Source of the DNA: Promethearchaeati archaeon SRVP18_Atabeyarchaeia-1
GTDB taxonomy: Archaea > Asgardarchaeota > Atabeyarchaeia > Atabeyarchaeales > Atabeyarchaeaceae
Assembly: GCA_037308085.1 (NCBI GenBank)
Contig: CP147779.1
Coordinates: 1,856,001 to 1,920,000, forward strand
DNA length: 64,000 nt
Direction: 5' to 3'
The notes below the pieces were generated by a model. That model ran no database searches. It saw nothing but the letters and a program-made list of their open reading frames with translations, and was not told the origin of the DNA. Made by a program: the position numbers and the translations under genes. This document shows positions 51,503-62,466 of the stretch, piece after piece; positions within the stretch are counted from its first letter, which is position 1, and every line of letters starts with the position of its first letter.

Positions 51503-52060
51503 TTACTTCTTGTAGCCGTTGATGTAGGCGAACTGCTCGAAGAGGAGCCTCTCCGGTCTCTGCTTCTCGCCGAGCCTCTGCTTCTCTGAGAGTACGGGGC
51601 TTATTGCGTCGGAGTGTTTTCCGACGTTGACGAGCGTGATGACTATCATGTCGGCAGGGATGCCGAGGACCAGCTTGACTTTCTCCTCATCGTATCCTGC
51701 GACGGGATGCGCCACGAGACCCAACTCTGTGGCTCGAAGTATGAGGAGTGCAGTTGCCATGCCCGTGTCGAACAGGTAGTATATTCGGTCTCCAATCACG
51801 CAGTCGAGTTCCTTCTTGCTGACTACCGCTATGATCATCGACGAGGCCCTCATCCACTCGTTCCCCCTATTGAAAGTGGAATGCAGCTTCTTCAGGACTT
51901 CTGGGTCGTAGACGAAGACATATCTCCAGGGCTGGAAGTTGTTACATGAAGGCGCCAGCCTCGCGGATTCAGCCAGATCCCGTACCAAATCATCTGTTAT
52001 CGGGACGGGATCAAGCGAGCGGTAAGCTCTCCTTTCACTAATTGCCTGATTCACATCCAT
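51503..52060 (-). CDS. Nitroreductase family protein
   Basis: RRAYR, APSCNNFQPW, ATELGL. Confidence 0.93.
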   Translation of the reverse strand: MDVNQAISERRAYRSLDPVPITDDLVRDLAESARLAPSCNNFQPWRYVFVYDPEVLKKLHSTFNRGNEWMRASSMIIAVVSKKELDCVIGDRIYYLFDTGMATALLILRATELGLVAHPVAGYDEEKVKLVLGIPADMIVITLVNVGKHSDAISPVLSEKQRLGEKQRPERLLFEQFAYINGYKK

Positions 52061-52174: not shown

Positions 52175-52687
52175 CTACGGTCGAAATACTCGCGCGCCAT
52201 GTCTGCTCACGAGGGAGTTGTTGCAGAGAAGCCTTTTGGAAGGTAGGTCAAGAAGCATTATTCCTGTCTCCCTCTTTGCCTGAGCTTTAAGCAAGCTAAC
52301 TACGCCTTCCTCGAAGCCAGATTCAGACACGTAGACTATCCACGACCACTTAATCTCATTGTCAGCCATGTAGCTCTCGGCGGCAGCCACCAGATTCCGC
52401 AGTTGCTCGACGGGCGCTCTTCCTCCTCCTCTATGGGACAGAACCAAGGCAAGGGTTTCCCAGCGAGGTGCGGTCCAAGACCACATCCTTGAGAGTAGTA
52501 CGCCTTTGACAGCCATATTCCCCCTGGCAAGAAGATCAACCTTTACGTCGCCGACTTTCTGGTCTCTGGACGAGGAGTACCAGGAACTTATCGCCTTGCC
52601 TTTACTGAATATTCTTTTCTCGGCAAAGTTGATGTATTCATCTATGTTCAACGGATCCCCTCTCTTGACTAAGTATGATTGTGGCAT
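52175..52687 (-). CDS. Hypothetical protein, possibly a degenerate restriction-endonuclease-like fold
   Basis: VDLLA...IVYVSESGF pattern; weak. Confidence 0.5.
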   Translation of the reverse strand: MPQSYLVKRGDPLNIDEYINFAEKRIFSKGKAISSWYSSSRDQKVGDVKVDLLARGNMAVKGVLLSRMWSWTAPRWETLALVLSHRGGGRAPVEQLRNLVAAAESYMADNEIKWSWIVYVSESGFEEGVVSLLKAQAKRETGIMLLDLPSKRLLCNNSLVSRHGARVFRP

Positions 52688-52904: not shown

Positions 52905-54683
52905 CTACTCTGGCGGGATCTCGGAGTAGATGGCGCCAACGTCGATTCCGCGTCTCTTGTTTCGCAACTTGAAGGCACCGTATACTATAAGGCCGATGGC
53001 AAATGTAGCAAGGATCATGACCGACTCCCAGAAGGGCGCGTCAACCATGCCATAGTAGCCTGCGACAATAGGATCAACTGTGAATATGTAGAAGAGCATG
53101 GCTACCAGCATGAACACCCAGAAGAAGGTGCCAATCCAGCCAAAGACCTTCAACGCAGGAACTTTACGTGGCTTCGAATGATCCTCTGAAGAAGCCGCTC
53201 CGGCAATCGAGAAGATTACCCCTATGGCGCCGATCAAGGTGAGGCCGATTCCTATGAAGAGCATGGACGCCGATGAGATGGCTATCGCTATGCCGAACGC
53301 TATTGCCAACAATGAGATCAAAAAGCCTACGCCGAGTGCGTTGCCTGTCGTTGTTTCCCACTCGAGCTTAGTACCCTTGTCGTATGCGGACTTGAATTTG
53401 CCAATGAACGTCAAGCCGGCGACGCATATGAATAGGTACGTGAAGCAGTCGATGAAAGTTATGAAGACCAATGAGCCCCAAGCCGTCAATGCGCTGAAGA
53501 ATACTCCCGGGATTGCTACGATGCCACAGATGAGTGCGGACCACAGTGGACTGTGGAACCTATCACTGACTTCAGCGAACTTCTCAGGGAATTGACGATC
53601 AAATGACCACGCGAATGTCGATCTTGTAGCTATCAGGAAGAATGGCGGCAAGTCATTCAGAAGCCATAGCGCACCAGTGATCGATATGAAGATAGATAGA
53701 ATGGGTATCGAGTAGGTGTAGACAGCTGCGAACAGCGGCAATTGTGCGGGGGCTGGACCTCCAACGACATTGTACGCATAGAGGAATTCTTCTCCAACAG
53801 CTCTGGCCAGTCCTCCGGTGTACACTACGAACAGCAGAATTATGAGTCCCATACCACCGATGAGTGAGAGTACCATGTTCTTCTTCGGGTTCTTGACTTC
53901 TCCTCCAACGTAGGACGAAGCGTAGAAGGCGGAATACGCGAAGATTATGCCTGGGAGTGCTGCAAAGCTGAGGACGAAGTCTGGCGTGTAGGGTACGGCG
54001 CTTGCTGCAATCGTCGCGTATGAGCCTGCTCCAAAGACTGCGTTCCAGTATGTTGGAAGGTCTCCTGCGGTATGTATCAGAAGCGCGGCGATAGTAAAGA
54101 CGCTTCCAACCAGTGGGATAATGAATAGTGCTTGTACTACGCGTCCCCATATATTGGCACCGAGTGCTGCTAGAAGGGTAATTACCACTGTCAATGCGAC
54201 CCCGAGCCAGATCGAAGGCCATATGTCTTGGAAAAGTAGACCCAGGTTTACGAGTGCGCCGTTGTTGTAGATGGCACCTGCTATCTTGAAGCTAGTTCCC
54301 CAGAAGTATATGTCATAGTTGGCAAGTAGTCCCACTGAGAGGGCGATTGATACCCACGATCCCCAGCTTGCCAGGAAGCCTACTGATGGGCTGACTGCTC
54401 TGCTCATGATTACGTAGGGTCCGCCCGATCTGGGCATTGCTGAGGACATGATGCCAAGGCATATCGCTGAACAACCGAAGGGTATTGCCACCAATAGGAC
54501 CATTGCTAGTGGACTTACGGCGTTGATTCCGGCGGCCGATGTCCATCCGTAGGCTTGGACGGCGAAAGAGTTTATTCCAGCTCCAATAACTGCGCTCATC
54601 ACCATCGCGAGTGCTGTAAACCAGCCGATCTCCCGAACCAGTCCGGTTGCTTCTCTAACGAAGACCTGTTTTCCTTTGGACAT
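52905..54683 (-). CDS. APC-superfamily amino acid permease
   Basis: FVREATGLVRE, MPRSGGPY, GGEVKNP, FAWSFDR, terminal IPPE; 12 or more TMs. Confidence 0.93.
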   Translation of the reverse strand: MSKGKQVFVREATGLVREIGWFTALAMVMSAVIGAGINSFAVQAYGWTSAAGINAVSPLAMVLLVAIPFGCSAICLGIMSSAMPRSGGPYVIMSRAVSPSVGFLASWGSWVSIALSVGLLANYDIYFWGTSFKIAGAIYNNGALVNLGLLFQDIWPSIWLGVALTVVITLLAALGANIWGRVVQALFIIPLVGSVFTIAALLIHTAGDLPTYWNAVFGAGSYATIAASAVPYTPDFVLSFAALPGIIFAYSAFYASSYVGGEVKNPKKNMVLSLIGGMGLIILLFVVYTGGLARAVGEEFLYAYNVVGGPAPAQLPLFAAVYTYSIPILSIFISITGALWLLNDLPPFFLIATRSTFAWSFDRQFPEKFAEVSDRFHSPLWSALICGIVAIPGVFFSALTAWGSLVFITFIDCFTYLFICVAGLTFIGKFKSAYDKGTKLEWETTTGNALGVGFLISLLAIAFGIAIAISSASMLFIGIGLTLIGAIGVIFSIAGAASSEDHSKPRKVPALKVFGWIGTFFWVFMLVAMLFYIFTVDPIVAGYYGMVDAPFWESVMILATFAIGLIVYGAFKLRNKRRGIDVGAIYSEIPPE

Positions 54684-54814
54684 TCCCTCTGCTTCTCTCC
54701 TCTGTTCTTTTCTCCTTATTGGAGATGAGTAATAGTATGCTCAAGGGGTTCATATATATACTTTTACTTTTGCCAGGGAAAAGCAGTTACTTTGAGCACC
54801 TCATTTACCATTCT

Positions 54815-55172
54815 GCCGCAGGGGGGCCCACGCCCTTAAGGGGTGGGATGAACTGCGGCGGCTAGAATGTTCGTTTAAGTATCTCTGTTCCATATGTTTC
54901 TTTGGACCCTGGGGCGAGACCGCGCAGGGTGGCGCCCCCGATGCAAAGCCTGAGTCTCTGTTTCCCAGGGCGGATGGTGGTCTCCGAGCACGGAGACGGG
55001 AAGCGTAACCCACCGCGCCTGGCGAGGTGAGCGGGGCTGGAAAAATGTAGCGCGCGAGCCCGGGAGCTCAACTTCCGTAGCAGACTTTGCGAGACCAGCG
55101 GCCCGGCGACGGGCGGAGAAGAAGTGAACGAAACGGAAAGCCCACCGGCTTCAAGCCGTGGGAGGAGGCTAC
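54815..55172 (+). mobile_element. ORF-less IS605-type mini element / omega-RNA-like gene
   Basis: Left-end hairpin gccgcag...cccacgcccttaaggggtggg...ctgcggc, TTTAAGTA box, structured GC-rich body, right end aagcccaccggcttcaagccgtgggaggagg. Confidence 0.75.
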
Positions 55173-56524
55173 TCGACGGTTTCATACCACTGGGATTTCT
55201 CGCCTACCTCTGCCCGTTTCTGCCACTTCTTTGTCTTTGGTTCATCGTCCAATTGCTTCAGAAAATCCGCGAGCCTTGCTAACACTTTTCCATTTTCGTC
55301 CTCCGGAAGGCGATACTCCGCTAACATCTGGGACATTTTCTCCGTGTTCATGGATAGAGTCTTGTACAATCCCCAGTCATCTGAGCACAGTTTGGCGATG
55401 TACTTCACATCTATCTTTCCAGGGTCTCCACTCCCAAGTTCGTGATCCAGCATGATTGCCGTCGTGTCGCGAGCGTCTCTCTCGCTGAATTTCACTATCT
55501 GGAGCTTTGTCATGAGGAGGTCGGCGAGCGGTATCGTGTACTCATCCAGTTCAAGTCTGTCCTTGAGGTCAAGCTTGTGGCACATCTCGAACGCGTCAAG
55601 GTAGACATCAACGCCGATCCCAGTCTTCTCATCAAAGAATTTCAGCCTCTTTCTTCCGTGAAGCGCATTGAACTTCTTGATAGGCTCGAAGCCCAGGCTC
55701 GCAAGCATCTTCTTTATTGCGATATCGTCCTTTGCATGGGCGAAGAGGTCTACGTCCGGATAGTCTCTGGCTAGGGGCGGCTGACTCGCGCTGGGGCAAC
55801 GCATCGCTACTGCTACGCCGCCAAGTACCCTCAATATGCGGTTCTCCATCCTTGCGTCATCGACGATTCTAGTCGCCAAGTTAACGATCTCAGGCGGCGG
55901 AGGCGAGGCTGGGGGTTGTGACTGAGGCGGAGAAGTGGGAGTGGTCTCCTCCTCGGACGGTTGGATGTCGGGGGGAGGCTGCGGCTGCGCAGGAAGCAGA
56001 GGCGTAGGTTGGGGCTGCACCTCTTCTATGATTGGCTCTGGCTGGGCCGTGGCCTCGGGTTCGGGTGGAGGCGGAGGTTGAACTCTCTCAACGGGTCGTT
56101 CCAGCTGAACAGAGGTGGGAGTCGCCTCTTTGGGGGCTTGGGGAGGTGGGGCGGCCGCCTGGGCTCTCGAATCCTCGAGGGCTATGACTTCGTCTATCAG
56201 GCTGCCGTACTTGTCGGCCAGAGTTCCCATTTTGGACAAGACTATGCCAACTTTCTTGTCGGTCAGGGTTATGAGGACCGCCTTGTTCGAGACCCTCGAA
56301 GCCACGATTGTCTTGACAGGGTCCAAGGTTAGTGTCAGGTTGTCGCCTTTCCCCATGATTAGAATGTTATGGTAGAAAGGCGAGACTCTACTCATGGTAG
56401 CCTTGCTCAGATCCGTGTAAAGGACCTTGCCTTGGCTAGATAGCAGAGCTAGCTCAACTATGTCTGGAACCCCAAGGGTTCTAAATTCCTTCTTAAGAAC
56501 ATCCACTATGCTGAGGAGACTCAT
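55169..56524 (-). CDS. Roadblock/profilin-like domain plus Pro-rich linker plus nucleotidyltransferase
   Basis: N-terminal ALLSSQGKVLY alpha/beta domain; Pro runs; LGGVA...DYPDVD NTase motif. Confidence 0.8.
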   Translation of the reverse strand: MSLLSIVDVLKKEFRTLGVPDIVELALLSSQGKVLYTDLSKATMSRVSPFYHNILIMGKGDNLTLTLDPVKTIVASRVSNKAVLITLTDKKVGIVLSKMGTLADKYGSLIDEVIALEDSRAQAAAPPPQAPKEATPTSVQLERPVERVQPPPPPEPEATAQPEPIIEEVQPQPTPLLPAQPQPPPDIQPSEEETTPTSPPQSQPPASPPPPEIVNLATRIVDDARMENRILRVLGGVAVAMRCPSASQPPLARDYPDVDLFAHAKDDIAIKKMLASLGFEPIKKFNALHGRKRLKFFDEKTGIGVDVYLDAFEMCHKLDLKDRLELDEYTIPLADLLMTKLQIVKFSERDARDTTAIMLDHELGSGDPGKIDVKYIAKLCSDDWGLYKTLSMNTEKMSQMLAEYRLPEDENGKVLARLADFLKQLDDEPKTKKWQKRAEVGEKSQWYETVE

Positions 56525-56586
56525 GTTTGAATGCCCCCAAATTCATCTCGGCTATTTAGAGACTACCATAAGATCGGGTTTGCGGA

Positions 56587-57324
56587 TTAGCGTCTCACTT
56601 CCTCAACAGTTTCATACCAGGGAGAACTCTCGCCTCTGGCGGCCCGCATGCGCCACCTCATGGATTTTGGTTCTTCCTCCAGTCTTCTGAGAAACGATGC
56701 CAACTTGGACTTGATTCTACGAGTGTCATCATCTGACAAGCCGTAATCGGCCACCATCTTAGATATCTTCTCCGCGTTCATGGACAGCGTCTTCCAAAGC
56801 CCCCAATCGCCGGAGCACAGCTTCGCTATGTAGTCCAAGTCTATCTTGTCAGGGTCTCTGCTCCCATAATCATGGTCTTTCAGGATGACTACGATATCCC
56901 TAATATCCTTCTCATTGATCTGGACGACCTGGAGCTTTGTCATGAGGAGGTCGGCGAGCGGTATCGTGTAACTATCCAGTTCAAGTCTGTCCTTGAAGTC
57001 GAACTTGTGGCACATCTGGAAGACATCAAGAAATATATCGACGTCGATTTTCTCCTTGGTGTTCGAGAACTGCAGTCTCTTCTTTCCATGCAGAGCGTTA
57101 AATCTCTTGTTGGGCTCGAAGCCGAGGCCTGTGAAGAGCTCCTTGATGGATTTGTCCTGTTTTGCATGCCCAACGAGGTCTATGTCGGCATAGTCCCTGA
57201 TCAGATTCCTATGTTTTGCGCTGGGGCATCGCATTCCTATAGCCGTGCCACCGAGTGCCCGCAGAACAACTCTGCTCTTCTGGGCCTCGTCAATAATCCT
57301 TGTTGCTTGTTGGACGATGTCCAT
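56587..57324 (-). CDS. Uncharacterised nucleotidyltransferase (Pol-beta superfamily)
   Basis: LGGTA...DYADID, third Asp in VDIF, LLMTKLQ, KD.RD. Confidence 0.85.
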   Translation of the reverse strand: MDIVQQATRIIDEAQKSRVVLRALGGTAIGMRCPSAKHRNLIRDYADIDLVGHAKQDKSIKELFTGLGFEPNKRFNALHGKKRLQFSNTKEKIDVDIFLDVFQMCHKFDFKDRLELDSYTIPLADLLMTKLQVVQINEKDIRDIVVILKDHDYGSRDPDKIDLDYIAKLCSGDWGLWKTLSMNAEKISKMVADYGLSDDDTRRIKSKLASFLRRLEEEPKSMRWRMRAARGESSPWYETVEEVRR

Positions 57325-57406
57325 CTAGCTCACACTCGCATGGGCCCACAAGTGAGATATTGTTGCCCCTTAAGACGGAGGGCGCAAAGCCTCTCTCGCT
57401 TTCTCA

Positions 57407-58351
57407 CTAGCCTTCAGTTCTCCAGTACTTGGAGATCTTATCCTTCTCCAGGTCAACGATGAAGCCTCTGAGGATCCCTTCACCATACTCAGAGCCCGGG
57501 TTGACACAAAGGGTTTTACCTATCTTGGCGATTCCGGGGGATTCGTGAACGTGCCCGTGAAGTCCAAGTTTCGGCTGGTACTGCTTGATCAGATCGTAAA
57601 CGGCCTTACTCCCTACGGGAATCATGACTTGTTGTCCACCTTGAACTACGGGGGTGAATTTCTCGTCAAGCTTGGGCGCCGCGTCAAGACTGGACTTGTA
57701 CGGTGGAGGATGCAGGTTTGCGATGAGATGACCGTAATCCTCCGTTAGCTTGAAGAGCCTCTCAAATCGTTTCATGAGCCTATCCTCAGGCTCCTCCCTA
57801 GCGGTATTCCACGGGGTCGGATTCACCCAGCCAGAGGTAATCATGAGGTGATTTTTGTCGATCTCGACCAGTTTCTCTTCAGGGTCTATTATCTTGTTGC
57901 TTGATTCTAGGATGGGGTCAACTATGAATCTGTCATCATTTCCAGGGGATACGAAGACTTTCACACTTCCATCGAGTTTCCGTTCCGCTATCTCCATCCA
58001 TCTGTTAATACCTTCACCGATGAGCTTATCAAAGAGCCTGCTGAGGTCAGCGGAGTCATTCTGAAGGTGCTCATATTCCTTTGTGCCACACATATACGGG
58101 TAGTAGCCCGAAGACATGACCTTCGCTTTGAATTCATCGACTTCCTGCCTAGACTTCATAACCTCGTCTCTGCCGAATATGTGTGCCTCGTATGTTCCGC
58201 CGTCAGCTTCGACGATTGGTACAACAACCTTGCCGGTGATGTCTCCTCCCATTATAGCCACGTCTGCCTTGTAGAAATTCCCGGCGTTGAGAAACTTCTT
58301 CCAGCAGACTTCGCTGCCATGAATGTCGGACGTGAAGTATATTCTTGTCAA
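57407..58351 (-). CDS. Calcineurin-like metallophosphoesterase (Icc-related)
   Basis: SDIHG, GGDITG, PGNDD, HPPP, HGHVHE, NPGS. Confidence 0.93.
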   Translation of the reverse strand: MTRIYFTSDIHGSEVCWKKFLNAGNFYKADVAIMGGDITGKVVVPIVEADGGTYEAHIFGRDEVMKSRQEVDEFKAKVMSSGYYPYMCGTKEYEHLQNDSADLSRLFDKLIGEGINRWMEIAERKLDGSVKVFVSPGNDDRFIVDPILESSNKIIDPEEKLVEIDKNHLMITSGWVNPTPWNTAREEPEDRLMKRFERLFKLTEDYGHLIANLHPPPYKSSLDAAPKLDEKFTPVVQGGQQVMIPVGSKAVYDLIKQYQPKLGLHGHVHESPGIAKIGKTLCVNPGSEYGEGILRGFIVDLEKDKISKYWRTEG

Positions 58352-58733: not shown

Positions 58734-60110
58734 CTAGCCGGAGACGGTTAGGTCATCGAGCACCATACTAGGTATCTTGCCTTCACTGAGAAGCCGCACG
58801 TCTTGTCCTACCAGTTGTACTTTCTTTAATGCATCAAGGATGTTGCCAGCTATGCTCACGGGTTCAAGAGGATAGGTGATCTCTCCTTTCGCGATTAGAT
58901 AGGCGTTAGGCGCAACCACGCTGAACTCACCTGTTGTCAGGTTCGACATGCCGATCCCTATTGGCCTGTCGGTGACAAGAATTCCTTCGCCGATTTCGGC
59001 TGCTAGTTCGTCGATTCGCTTTGCTCCTGGTATCACCACAAGGTTAGTTATCGAAGTGCCTGGTAGCTGAAGGAATGGTTCGGGCCAGTCGCGGCTGGCG
59101 TTTCCCGTGCTCTCCCTATTCTGCCTCGCCGACGAGTAGCCGTTATATATGTACGTCTTCAGGACGCCTCTATCGATTATCTTGGTCGTTCGCCTTGGGA
59201 TTCCTTCGCCATCTACCTTCGAAGTTGCGATCCCTTCTGGCAGCTGACCATCATCAATGGCGGTGATGTCTGGGCTTGTTACCTCCTCTCCGACCTTGCC
59301 CTCGTAGCGACTTCTACCATCCATGGCGTTCCCTGCATCTGTAGCAGAGCCAAGCGTATCTTTGAGCAGTTCTCCGATCGATACGTTTTCCCAAACGACA
59401 CTACTTTTGAATGTTTGGCTCAACGGCTTTGCCCCCAACATCTTAAGGGAGTTCTTGGCCGCGCTTTCGCCAATTTGACTGAAGTCTGTGAGTCTGCGCG
59501 AAACAAGGGAGTCCGTCCCAGTCTTCTGCCTACCTTCTTCAGCGGTTGTGCACCTAGCGCTTGCCTCAATGTAAGACGTTTTTGAGGACGCCTCTATTCC
59601 CCTTGAGCTAGATACGGCGAAGCATGCCCTGTTGACCAAGAGAGTGCCATAGAAGGATTTCACCCGCTTGTCGAGTGCGAGAGCCCTCTTCGCGAACTCG
59701 CTGACTGATGCGAGCGCGTCATCCTCAGAGAACTCTGTGATGCTGCTGTCAATTGTGCCATCTTCTGAGGCTAGTTTGACTGGATCTGGCAGATGCTTGA
59801 AATTCGGGTCTGCCGGGCGTATTCGTGCGACTGCCAGGGCTTCTTCAACCACGGCATCGATCAGTCTCTTGTCGGTTCCAGTGGCGGCGGCGAACCCTAC
59901 CTTACCTTCTACCGCCACGCGGATTCCCACGCCAGAGGGCGTTCCACATCGGGCCTCAGCAGTCAGCTTTCTGATATTGACCGAGATCATATCAGCTTTC
60001 GAGGAGAGGGCTTCAGCCTCGTTCGCGCCTTTCTGCAAAGCTCTCCTGACTGCGAGGTCAGACAAGGCTAGCAGTTCGCTTTGAATCAGGTCCAATTCCC
60101 GGGTCTTCAT
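58734..60110 (-). CDS. pmbA: TldE/PmbA subunit
   Basis: GIRV, DGEG, STGNA, TGEFS; lacks HExxH. Confidence 0.9.
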   Translation of the reverse strand: MKTRELDLIQSELLALSDLAVRRALQKGANEAEALSSKADMISVNIRKLTAEARCGTPSGVGIRVAVEGKVGFAAATGTDKRLIDAVVEEALAVARIRPADPNFKHLPDPVKLASEDGTIDSSITEFSEDDALASVSEFAKRALALDKRVKSFYGTLLVNRACFAVSSSRGIEASSKTSYIEASARCTTAEEGRQKTGTDSLVSRRLTDFSQIGESAAKNSLKMLGAKPLSQTFKSSVVWENVSIGELLKDTLGSATDAGNAMDGRSRYEGKVGEEVTSPDITAIDDGQLPEGIATSKVDGEGIPRRTTKIIDRGVLKTYIYNGYSSARQNRESTGNASRDWPEPFLQLPGTSITNLVVIPGAKRIDELAAEIGEGILVTDRPIGIGMSNLTTGEFSVVAPNAYLIAKGEITYPLEPVSIAGNILDALKKVQLVGQDVRLLSEGKIPSMVLDDLTVSG

Positions 60111-60112
60111 CC

Positions 60113-61558
60113 TCAGGCACCTCCAAATTGTGCTTCACTCAACAAGAGGTGCGGCCCTCCGACTCCAACGGGCAAGTGGTTTTGCCCGAACTTGCCGCAA
60201 CCGGCGAAGTAGCTGCTCCACATGAGAAGCTCTTTCGTCGCGCCTTCGATCTTCTGGAGAAATGAGAGTATGGACCCTGAAAGTGTGACCTCTCGCAGTG
60301 GGTACTTTATCTCGCCCTTCTCGATACGGTAGCCTCTGGCGGCATTGAAGGCGAATGTTCCTTCGTCACTTGCCTGACCACCAGATGTTCCGATAGCGTA
60401 CACGCCATCTTTCAGAAGCTCGAGAGCCTCCTCTAATGTGAGGTCGCCGGGTGCGAAGTAAGTATTCCGCATCCTTACGATTGGCGGATAGTTGTAGTCT
60501 ACTGCCCTTGCGTTACCGGTTAAGTCGGAGCCCATCAACGAGGCAGTCTCTTGACTATGCAAATAGCCTTTCATTATGCCTTTGTCCATTATGACGACTT
60601 TCCGCGTCTCCACTCCCTGGTCATCAACCGGTATCCAAAACCCGTTCTTCCCCAGCTGCTGGGGGGTTCCTTCATCTATAACCGTTGCGTGTTCAGACCC
60701 CAGTCTTTCTCCCAGTTTCCCTGCAAGGGCTGACATTCCGGATGTTATGAAGTCTGCCTCAGTCCAGTGACCGAAGCTCTCGTGCGCTAGAACTCCAGCC
60801 AACATGTTTTCGCAGAGGGCTCTGTGTTTGCCCGCTGGCGCGGGTTTTGCCCCAAGTTTCTCTGCTGCCCACCTGCCGACATTAGCTCCAATAACGTCTG
60901 GCGTGTGGTCTTTTGCTTCAAACCCCTCAAGCCCGAAGCTACCTCCGTACCAATCCATGCTATCGGCGAGCAGACCTTCTCTTTTCGAGACTACCTGGAT
61001 CATGATGTCGATGACTAACGGAAACCATGAACTCTCGTTTCCATTGCTGTCGACGAAACCTTTCTCGCCGTACAGCTCGTTGTACATCGCGTTGATCGAA
61101 ACTATCTCTCTGCCATGATCTTGAGCACCATGAACAGCCCGCATGATGAGGTCCTTCTTAAGTTCGAGGGAGACATCTTTTGGATGTAGCTTAGCGCTGA
61201 GCTTCATCCCGCTTTTCTTGAATTGGGGCGCCTTGATAGATTTCAGTTTTCCTTGAGACGAGAGACTGGCGGCCTTGGCTATTTTCAAAGCCTTGCCGGC
61301 TGCCTCGGCCGTAGCGTTCCTTGTAAGGTCCACAGTGAAGGAGTAGCCCGCTGAACCTCCGAAGAATGCGGTGATACCAATTCCTGACCTTCGCAGTGTC
61401 TTAACGTCCCTGATAGTATTGTTCTCTGCCATAATTGTTCGGATAGATTGCTCATCGAATCTCGCTTGTGCGAGCTCGGCACCGAAGGCCTCTGCGCTTT
61501 TGACGCCATGTTTCAAGAGATCGAACATTCCGACCACCATAGACAATGCACAGATCAA
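60113..61558 (-). CDS. tldD: TldD metalloprotease subunit
   Basis: HESFGH, DDQG, TGNARA, PIVRMRNT, CGK.GQ..PVG.GGP. Confidence 0.93.
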   Translation of the reverse strand: MICALSMVVGMFDLLKHGVKSAEAFGAELAQARFDEQSIRTIMAENNTIRDVKTLRRSGIGITAFFGGSAGYSFTVDLTRNATAEAAGKALKIAKAASLSSQGKLKSIKAPQFKKSGMKLSAKLHPKDVSLELKKDLIMRAVHGAQDHGREIVSINAMYNELYGEKGFVDSNGNESSWFPLVIDIMIQVVSKREGLLADSMDWYGGSFGLEGFEAKDHTPDVIGANVGRWAAEKLGAKPAPAGKHRALCENMLAGVLAHESFGHWTEADFITSGMSALAGKLGERLGSEHATVIDEGTPQQLGKNGFWIPVDDQGVETRKVVIMDKGIMKGYLHSQETASLMGSDLTGNARAVDYNYPPIVRMRNTYFAPGDLTLEEALELLKDGVYAIGTSGGQASDEGTFAFNAARGYRIEKGEIKYPLREVTLSGSILSFLQKIEGATKELLMWSSYFAGCGKFGQNHLPVGVGGPHLLLSEAQFGGA

Positions 61559-61692
61559 CGAAGTACTTAGCGAGTTCGGCTACTAGAGTCGAGGCGATCT
61601 ACCTATCGCCATGAAGTTGCAGGATCAAAATGATGAATGGGATCCGCGAATGCGGACCTCAAATCGGTGGGCAATTGGCTTGCCCACTTTTT

Positions 61693-62466
61693 CTAGTCTG
61701 CTATCTTGCTGAATTCAGTCTTGGCAGCTCCACAGACAGGGCAAACCCAGTCGTCTGGCAGTTTCTCAAAAGGCGTCCCAGGTTTCACGCCTGAATCAGG
61801 GTCGCCTTTCGCTGGGTCATATACGTACCCGCAAACGGAGCACTGGTATCTTGCCATCTTTGCGGGGGCAGCTGAAGCTGACGGCTTGGTTGCTTTGGGA
61901 ACAGGTGCTTTCTTAGACACTTCCTCAACCTCCTCTTTTCTCTGCGATTTTATATATGTTGCAGCGGTTTCAGGGGTGTACCCCTTCTTAACTTGATGGT
62001 AGTAATCATAAGTCATTGGCTCTGCCTCTTCATTGATCATTTGGGCATCAACAACTTTTCCCAGGAAAACCACGTGGGTTCCGCAGTCGAGGCTGCCTGT
62101 GACCTGCGCCTCGAAATAGCCAACGCCATAATCAAGAACTATTGGCGCGCCAGTCACCCCAGTTTTGTGCTTAACGTTCTTGAACTTGTCTATGTCCCTG
62201 CCTGACTTGAAGCCAAAGGTTCCAATGAAAGTCATTGGGGTTTCTGTAGAGAGAATAGTGGCAGCGTACACCTTGCTAGCTTGAATGTAGCTGTAAGTCA
62301 GGTTCTTCTTATTGATGCTTCCAACGATCTCGGGAGGGTCACCAGTGACTTGGAAGATCGTGTTGCAGATCTGCCCATTTATCTTCTTGTCCATTGTTGA
62401 AGAGACCACGAACATTCCGCAACAGATCTTCCGAAAAGCATCAGTATTCATGGTGTTGAGCCTCAT
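61693..62466 (-). CDS. Flavin reductase-rubredoxin fusion (high-molecular-weight rubredoxin)
   Basis: [22 protein letters not shown]; CSVCGYVYD...WVCPVCG. Confidence 0.93.

Follow-up and report, generated by a model that had tools for sequence, protein, structure and literature searches.

The DNA analysed here is a stretch of 64,000 nucleotides (the window) from the Asgard archaeon Promethearchaeati archaeon SRVP18_Atabeyarchaeia-1 (contig CP147779.1, positions 1,856,001 to 1,920,000), in which four co-oriented minus-strand genes at 52905-58351 encode a metallophosphoesterase (MPE), a nucleotidyltransferase (NTase), a Roadblock-NTase fusion protein and an APC-superfamily permease. The open reading frames (ORFs) were found where an earlier note, made from the sequence alone, had placed them. 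Comparison of genomes indicates that the MPE, the NTase and the permease constitute a widespread three-gene module across two domains of life, accompanied by the fusion in some Asgard archaea. The reading that we favour, with a probability of about 0.4, is that the NTase and the MPE act on the cargo of the permease and that the Roadblock domain is a regulatory add-on.

Eighty loci around NTase homologues were taken from species-representative genomes of Anaerolineales and other Chloroflexota, Thermoleophilia and other Actinomycetota, Bacillota, Bathyarchaeia, Nitrososphaerales, Heimdallarchaeota and another Asgard metagenome-assembled genome. A homologue of the window's MPE was found by tblastn within the fetched flank in 72 of them, with 37-47 % identity over full-length matches outside Asgard, and most of the eight loci without a match were truncated contigs. 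Unbiased clustering of the ORFs placed the MPE in 68 and an APC permease in 60 of the 80 loci. The MPE, the NTase and the permease were the only real gene families common to all seven lineage groups; the remaining clusters, seen in five or six of them, have the look of antisense shadow ORFs within the trio genes. The conservation of the neighbourhood, which the earlier note had proposed as a check, was also followed in 41 Asgard genomes, and the cluster proved to be kept far beyond this genome. Eighteen of them have the NTase domain, and each of these also has the MPE, which is present in 20 genomes; the two extra, MPE-only genomes are 76-84 % complete. The copy numbers of NTase and MPE per Asgard genome go closely together (7/7, 4/4, 2/2, 2/2 and 3/2). 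The permease was found in 16 Asgard genomes at E<=1e-10. The four genomes with NTase and MPE and without a permease match all come from a single genus, of which one complete genome was inspected; there a divergent APC permease is encoded directly upstream of the MPE-NTase pair.

The largest number of sets was seen in an Asgard genome of 4.4 Mb (G025), with seven NTase, seven MPE and six permease matches, several of them on one contig. Its sets (e.g. L112, G025:C57:1-20000) adjoin genes for a type I phosphodiesterase/nucleotide pyrophosphatase and an acetamidase/formamidase.

The neighbours of the trio in Chloroflexota and Actinomycetota encode a DeoR regulator, an APH/choline-kinase-like kinase, a DAO-GCV_T oxidase, an aminotransferase, a HAD hydrolase and an aldolase, and those recurring in Asgard archaea an iron-containing alcohol dehydrogenase (Fe-ADH), a GFO/IDH/MocA protein and an M20 peptidase. 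A protein with four CBS domains (4xCBS) is encoded after the NTase in 47 loci, all from Chloroflexota. No gene for a GTPase, a PII-like protein, glutamine synthetase (GS) or another candidate target was conserved beside the trio in the 80 loci, and most organisms with the trio lack a Roadblock fusion. A literature search returned no description of the trio or of a Roadblock-NTase fusion. Each domain on its own is a member of a known superfamily; not described in the literature searched are the trio, an MPE subfamily with an invariant GNDD motif, an NTase family below the PF14907 threshold, a permease subfamily with an EIPPE tail and a Roadblock-tethered NTase with intact catalytic motifs.

The stand-alone NTase (P0002, 245 aa, 56587-57324, minus strand) was modelled with AlphaFold2 (AF2) at a predicted local distance difference test score (pLDDT) of 96.3, giving an N-terminal alpha/beta core of the pol-beta NTase fold and a helical C-terminal domain. 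Its catalytic residues are G25-G26, D47-x-D49 and D96, and the counterparts in the second NTase domain, that of the fusion protein, are G235-G236, D257-x-D259 and D306. The earlier note was right that both NTases keep GG and DxD, to which a third Asp can be added. The five positions were retained almost throughout 277 family members (G25 in 273, G26 in 250, D47 in 268, D49 in 267 and D96 in 267), and further, family-specific residues (N76, H106, Q132, W174-G175, W224, R227 and Y237) were equally conserved. The near-invariance of GG, DxD and the third Asp points to a catalytic family.

An exhaustive search with the whole fusion protein as query gave 1,886 clusters (50 % identity) at E<=1e-3, the best matches listed all aligning to its NTase half. 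Among the named homologues, the one closest to the plain NTase bears the annotation Candidatus Atabeyarchaeum deiterrae. P0002 matched the uncharacterised Pfam family NTP_transf_5 (PF14907) with 18.4 bits (E 1.8e-3), under the gathering cut-off of 31.2 bits, and the same sub-threshold match was obtained for 40 of 64 NTase relatives at E<=0.01 (best 2.1e-8). By these scores the P0002 family would be a distant relative of PF14907 or an unmodelled sister family. In a soil metagenome contig (L113:2-2205) the MPE gene is followed after 3 nt by an NTase gene fused to a C-terminal extension of ~300 aa that scores as a phosphoribosyltransferase (PRTase); the extension can be read as two tandem PRTase-like domains.

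The solved structures nearest to the NTase model were MenT1 (Z 12.1), ANT(2'')-Ia (12.0) and the NTase-like protein 5UVD (11.7). Further matches were LnuA (10.5), JHP933 (10.3), TglT/MenT3 (9.7) and MenT4 (8.5), with pol beta and pol X at ~5. ANT(2'')-Ia, LnuA and MenT1, MenT3 and MenT4 combine an NTase core and a helical C-domain as P0002 does (Z 8.5-12.1), at an identity of only 11-16 %. Since the nearest structures are of the MenT, ANT and Lnu types, the kin of the family span both small-molecule O-nucleotidyltransferases and tRNA-modifying toxins. In contrast to ANT, Lnu, MenT and AbiEii, the P0002 family has an MPE and a permease as partners and stands in no antitoxin or resistance context.

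The toxin side of this kinship would suit a module acting on RNA ends, in which a MenT/AbiEii-like NTase extends the 3' ends of tRNA or other RNA and the MPE heals 2',3'-cyclic or 3'-phosphate ends, or in which the two form a toxin-antitoxin-like pair. Besides the three MenT proteins among the best structural matches, a marginal PADLOC match of the NTase to AbiEii (E 0.009) fits such a role, and MPE-type phosphatase domains occur in the Pnkp enzymes of RNA repair. We nevertheless regard it as quite improbable. The NTase domain is not basic (median pI 6.4), no AbiEi/MenA-type antitoxin accompanies it, its partners being the MPE and a permease whose link to RNA would be left unexplained, and an identity of ~35-50 % over two domains of life together with stable synteny is unlike mobile toxin-antitoxin systems. 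A defence or toxin-antitoxin function was rejected on the lack of the antitoxin, the nature of the partners, the stable synteny and the marginal AbiEii score.

The small-molecule side of the kinship could in turn mean the inactivation of a xenobiotic or antibiotic, the ANT/Lnu-like NTase nucleotidylating a toxic amino-sugar or amine that enters via the permease and the MPE processing the adduct. ANT(2'')-Ia and LnuA are structurally close, and the NTase profile gave weak sequence matches to ANT(2''). A dedicated importer of a toxin makes little sense, however, the set occurs in archaea without the usual targets of such drugs, and neither an amplification to seven sets nor an obligatory MPE partner is a feature of resistance NTases, which makes this the least likely of the explanations that were weighed.

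The MPE (P0001, 314 aa, TTG start, 57407-58351, minus strand) matched the Pfam family Metallophos weakly (23.8 bits, over the cut-off of 21.5). It is calcineurin-like, with an insert of ~90 aa separating motifs II and III. All five metal motifs (DxH, GD, GNH[DE], H and GHxH) were invariant across 32 aligned orthologues, motif III in the variant form GNDD; the invariant residues in P0001 are D9, H11, G36-D37, G137-N138-D139-D140, H214 and G266-H267-x-H269. A profile search against solved structures gave aq_1956, LpxH, Rv0805/Icc/CpdA and YfcE as the only relatives, all of them weak (E 8e-5 to 0.2). These nucleotide-directed MPEs have the five motifs in common with the P0001 family, which differs from them in the ~90-aa insert and in the invariant GNDD in place of GNH[DE].

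With cyclic nucleotide phosphodiesterases (Rv0805, Icc) among the weak relatives of the MPE, the pair might turn over a second messenger, the NTase making a linear or cyclic (oligo)nucleotide, the MPE degrading it and the permease or another protein serving as the receptor. The pairing of a synthase with a hydrolase at matched copy numbers is what such a system would show, and the 4xCBS protein after the NTase in the 47 Chloroflexota loci could be brought in as well, CBS domains being known to bind adenosyl ligands. The structural kin of the NTase are nevertheless of the MenT, ANT and Lnu types, the CD-NTase and OAS types appearing among the matches at low rank and with low probability. No receptor or effector domain is conserved across the lineages, and seven parallel systems in one genome would be unusual. 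Signalling through a nucleotide messenger is on these grounds very unlikely.

The permease (P0004, 592 aa, 52905-54683, minus strand) belongs to AA_permease_2 (PF13520; E 1.3e-26, 94 bits) and matched no NCBIfam equivalog at its cut-off. It was the sole match in the genome to a trio permease of Anaerolineales used as query. Thirty trio permeases from Asgard, Bathyarchaeia, Nitrososphaerales, Chloroflexota, Actinomycetota and Bacillota were aligned. The trio permeases have a conserved N-terminal motif, VF.R.A.GLVR, and in nearly all of the 30, in every lineage sampled, the protein ends with the tail GIDV...F.EIPPE, which is cytoplasmic and is encoded at 52905-52967 (minus strand) in P0004. The tail contains no invariant Tyr, Ser or Thr and was therefore dropped as a candidate site of modification. 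The C-terminus of the NTase family (consensus WYELPEE) has an acidic-proline character resembling that of the permease tail.

The fusion protein (P0003, 451 aa, 55169-56524, minus strand) starts with a Roadblock/LC7 domain (residues 1-118, 56171-56524), which is connected by a linker rich in Pro, Gln and Glu (residues 119-210, 55895-56170; 31 of 92 residues are Pro) to the second NTase domain (residues 211-451 plus the stop codon, 55169-55894), 59 % identical to P0002. The AF2 model of the N-domain (pLDDT 89.7) has the topology a-b-b-a-b-b-b-a, with helices at 3-16, 41-55 and 92-117 and strands at 22-29, 34-37, 62-66, 72-77 and 82-88. The top Foldseek match was the Asgard roadblock protein 8yqk (E 9.8e-6, TM 0.65/0.69), followed by 7f8m and 9jue and, after these Asgard proteins, by MglB (6izw/6hjm), the C-terminal domains of RagA/C and LAMTOR, 43 matches in all having E<=1e-3. 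A profile of 11 orthologous N-domains run against the PDB found Roadblock structures only (E 1e-3, 7e-3 and 0.15). Searches of Pfam, NCBIfam and, with the single sequence, the PDB gave nothing significant for the N-domain; no Pfam family was matched even at E<=10, so that Robl_LC7 (PF03259) was not reached, and a word-indexed search among proteins of 64-216 aa found no stand-alone relatives. The model thus supports a true Roadblock/LC7 fold of a divergent subfamily that PF03259 misses. The earlier note had judged residues 1-115 by eye to be roadblock- or profilin-like; the ranking of the structural matches bears out the former and rejects the latter, since dozens of Roadblock chains precede the first profilin, which stands at rank 41 (TM of the profilins 0.45-0.51). 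The binding of polyproline, which the note had associated with profilins, finds no support in the linker either, since its length and sequence vary among the P0003 orthologues and the prolines are poorly conserved.

Roadblock domains are dimeric platforms for small GTPases (PMC10933270). Residues 1-118 match the fold and topology of such platforms (8YQK, 7F8M, 9JUE, MglB, the Rag C-terminal domains and LAMTOR/Ragulator), from which P0003 differs in that its domain is tethered by a 92-aa Pro-rich linker to an enzyme and has no linked GTPase gene. The genome encodes 25 Ras-like GTPases and 16 Robl_LC7 proteins, and none of these genes lies in or beside the cluster, which goes against the wiring to a GTPase at the locus that the earlier note had envisaged.

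Metagenomes yielded no fewer than 18 distinct Roadblock-NTase fusions that have this N-domain, and all five catalytic positions are kept in 17 of the 18. One fusion homologue is annotated as Candidatus Njordarchaeum, and a search for longer NTase fusions yielded the Asgard Roadblock fusions only. In a quick maximum likelihood (ML) tree (IQ-TREE) the plain and fused Asgard NTase domains formed one clade (SH-aLRT 100), within which the plain copies made up a subclade (93). Since the plain copies fall inside the joint clade, the NTase of the fusion appears to be a paralogue duplicated within the clade of Atabey/Njord-type Asgard archaea. In each of the five contigs that were examined, the fusion gene adjoined those of the plain NTase and the MPE, in varying gene order. 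The sister complete Atabeyarchaeia genome (G002) has the MPE, NTase and permease genes without the fusion, and the fusion query detected none elsewhere in it.

This genome encodes two further proteins (L104:5520-6389 and L105:5219-5962, both minus strand) in which the same Roadblock subfamily and a Pro-rich linker precede a winged-helix-turn-helix (wHTH)-like domain of ~80 aa; the one in L104 has a counterpart in the sister genome (L107:4978-5772, minus strand). Because it also fronts winged-HTH domains in the same genome, the Asgard Roadblock domain seems to behave as a portable N-terminal module placed ahead of different output domains. In L104 and in its sister counterpart L107 the Roadblock-wHTH gene is followed by a gene for a V4R-domain protein.

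Bacteria have comparable proteins. Seven representatives of ~380-400 aa consist of a Roadblock domain, an Ala/Pro-rich low-complexity linker and a domain of the same NTase-like family, and those in MglA/MglB-type operons of Anaerolineae share the domain order of the Asgard fusion. Their Roadblock domain looks canonical, PF03259 being reached below threshold in three of the seven, and has no detectable sequence similarity to that of the Asgard fusions; in the ML tree the bacterial fusions form a clade of their own, separate from Asgard. By these two lines of evidence the Roadblock-NTase fusion arose twice independently. The operon of one bacterial fusion encodes a GAF histidine kinase, four further Roadblock proteins, a PatA_N protein and an Arf/MglA-like GTPase, and neither an MPE nor a permease. 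D47 and G26 are lost in six of the seven (P0181, P0189, P0208, P0229, P0248 and P0250) and kept in P0134, and for this reason the NTase-like domain of the bacterial fusions is probably a non-catalytic binder or pseudoenzyme. In contrast to the fusions in MglA operons, the Asgard fusion has intact catalytic motifs and sits with the MPE, NTase and permease.

The association of the NTase family with Roadblock domains raises the alternative of a switch at the level of proteins, which was the proposal of the earlier note. The NTase would transfer a nucleoside monophosphate (NMP) to the permease, a regulator or a small GTPase, the MPE would erase the modification, and the Roadblock domain would recruit the second NTase to a GTPase/Roadblock platform and so couple uptake to signalling. 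The NTase and the MPE co-occur closely and in matching copy numbers, as a writer and an eraser would. The fusion to Roadblock domains on two independent occasions, the bacterial one inside operons with an MglA-like GTPase, also speaks for such a switch. The wHTH proteins fronted by the same Roadblock subfamily have an input-output architecture, the permeases carry conserved cytoplasmic motifs at both termini, ending in EIPPE, and the Ras-like GTPases and Roadblock proteins of the genome offer possible partners. Reversible NMPylation has precedents in GlnD/PII-AmtB and DrrA/SidD-Rab1. With these systems and GlnE the trio has in common the logic of an NTase and a metal-dependent hydrolase and, at the genomic level, the link to a transporter of nitrogen compounds.

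The trio differs from GlnD, GlnE and DrrA in that its hydrolase is a calcineurin-type MPE and not an HD or PPM enzyme, and no PII, GS or GTPase gene is linked to it; no HD domain was found in the trio proteins and neither PII nor GS among their conserved neighbours. Protein NMPylases of the GlnE, DrrA and MntA types were not among the best 50 structural matches listed for the NTase. In addition, the permease tail offers no invariant hydroxyl residue, the loss of D47 and G26 in the bacterial fusions weakens the inference that a GTPase is NMPylated, and the trio mostly occurs in organisms without a Roadblock fusion. A protein switch is accordingly doubtful, and its most specific version, in which the Roadblock-tethered NTase docks on a small-GTPase/Roadblock platform and reversibly NMPylates the GTPase or the permease in response to the solute of the permease, with the MPE as the eraser, is highly improbable. 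If true, it would amount to a nutrient switch coupled to a transporter in a prokaryote and assembled from the Roadblock components that eukaryotes employ in Ragulator. A system of the Rag-Ragulator-SLC38A9 type, the analogy drawn in the earlier note, found no support: no GTPase is linked, the transporter is an AA_permease_2 and not an Aa_trans protein, and most trios stand without the fusion.

The case that the earlier note had named as contrary to its own proposal, i.e. enzymes merely processing an imported substrate, is rated as slightly more likely than the protein switch because of the small-molecule NTases among the structural kin, the up to seven-fold amplification of the trio and the catabolic-looking bacterial islands. 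In the mechanism that we favour, the permease would import an amine or organocation-type solute, and the NTase would move NMP from a nucleoside triphosphate onto this solute or its phosphorylated derivative. The MPE would cleave a nucleotide-linked phosphodiester or pyrophosphate bond of the NTase product; both enzymes would thus work on one small molecule tagged with a nucleotide, either consecutively or in opposite directions. That both are active and share the same intermediate is inferred, and the nature of the substrate and of the Roadblock partner is speculative. In Asgard archaea of the Atabeyarchaeia/Njordarchaeia type the NTase gene was duplicated, and one copy was joined to a divergent Roadblock domain by a tether that is flexible and rich in Pro. 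The Roadblock domain may be an input module for dimerisation or partner docking, so that the second NTase, with its catalytic motifs intact, would be scaffolded or regulated.

Several findings are consistent with the processing of a small molecule. ANT(2'')-Ia and LnuA are among the top structural neighbours of the NTase, whose median pI is not that expected of RNA-binding toxins, and the MPE is related, weakly by sequence, to nucleotide phosphodiesterases and pyrophosphatases. Whole trios are amplified in single genomes, their neighbours in Chloroflexota and Actinomycetota look catabolic, and the Asgard loci have the recurring Fe-ADH, GFO/IDH/MocA and M20 genes; the NTase-PRTase fusion encoded after an MPE can be counted here as well. 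The Roadblock domain as a modular input is supported by the wHTH fusions, by the presence of the MPE and the plain NTase on every fusion contig examined and by the sister trio that lacks the fusion.

Other points weigh against it. With a metabolite as their target, writer and eraser would run a futile cycle if both worked on the same bond, and we know of no such pathway. Roadblock domains are signalling or scaffold modules, not metabolic ones, and the bacterial Roadblock fusions of the family are found in MglA GTPase operons without MPE or permease. In the structural comparison the tRNA NTases of the MenT type match no worse than the small-molecule NTases, and the catabolic-looking neighbours, confined to Chloroflexota and Actinomycetota, may reflect shared ancestry. 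The C-terminal tail of the permease resembles a docking motif, which suggests that regulation of the transporter would fit at least equally well.

The spacing of the genes in the window is uneven. The gap between the MPE and the plain NTase is 82 bp and that between the plain NTase and the fusion 62 bp, and the fusion is separated from the permease by 485 bp, holding the insertion of a non-coding GC-rich repeat of 364 bp (54809-55172, no strand assigned) precisely at the fusion gene's stop codon. The repeat has seven further copies in the genome that cover at least ~200 bp at 75-84 % identity and is missing from the corresponding gap in the syntenic relative L108. It does not belong to the MPE-NTase-permease system. 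A TATA-like A/T box lies 5' of the permease gene (54751-54770, minus strand). Because this A/T-rich upstream sequence is conserved in L108, the box is probably the permease's own promoter.

On the permease side the cluster is followed by a gene for a 170-aa protein without a family match (52175-52687, minus strand) and then by a nitroreductase gene (51503-52060, minus strand). The 170-aa protein is 57 % identical to its counterpart in L003, and L108 has a size-matched ORF at the equivalent place, the order of permease, 170-aa protein and nitroreductase being seen in both loci. Upstream of the MPE, a TldD/PmbA peptidase pair and a flavin reductase-rubredoxin fusion are encoded at 58734-62466 (minus strand); their order is maintained in L108, and a flavin reductase-rubredoxin gene is also found near the cluster in L003. 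Two complete Atabeyarchaeia genomes are available from wetland soil (PMC11291895).

If the role of the trio were worked out, over a thousand hypothetical proteins would gain a function, and a new use of nucleotidylation, coupled to the uptake of solutes, would probably come to light. The contribution of the NTase-like domain can be gauged, as in a natural experiment, by setting the Asgard fusion beside its independent, mostly degenerate bacterial counterpart. The Asgard fusion also presents the Roadblock domain as what appears to be a portable input or docking module for an enzyme with intact catalytic motifs. Elsewhere the domain is familiar chiefly as a platform for GTPases in eukaryotes and in the archaea related to them, so that the fusion bears on how it was used before eukaryotes.

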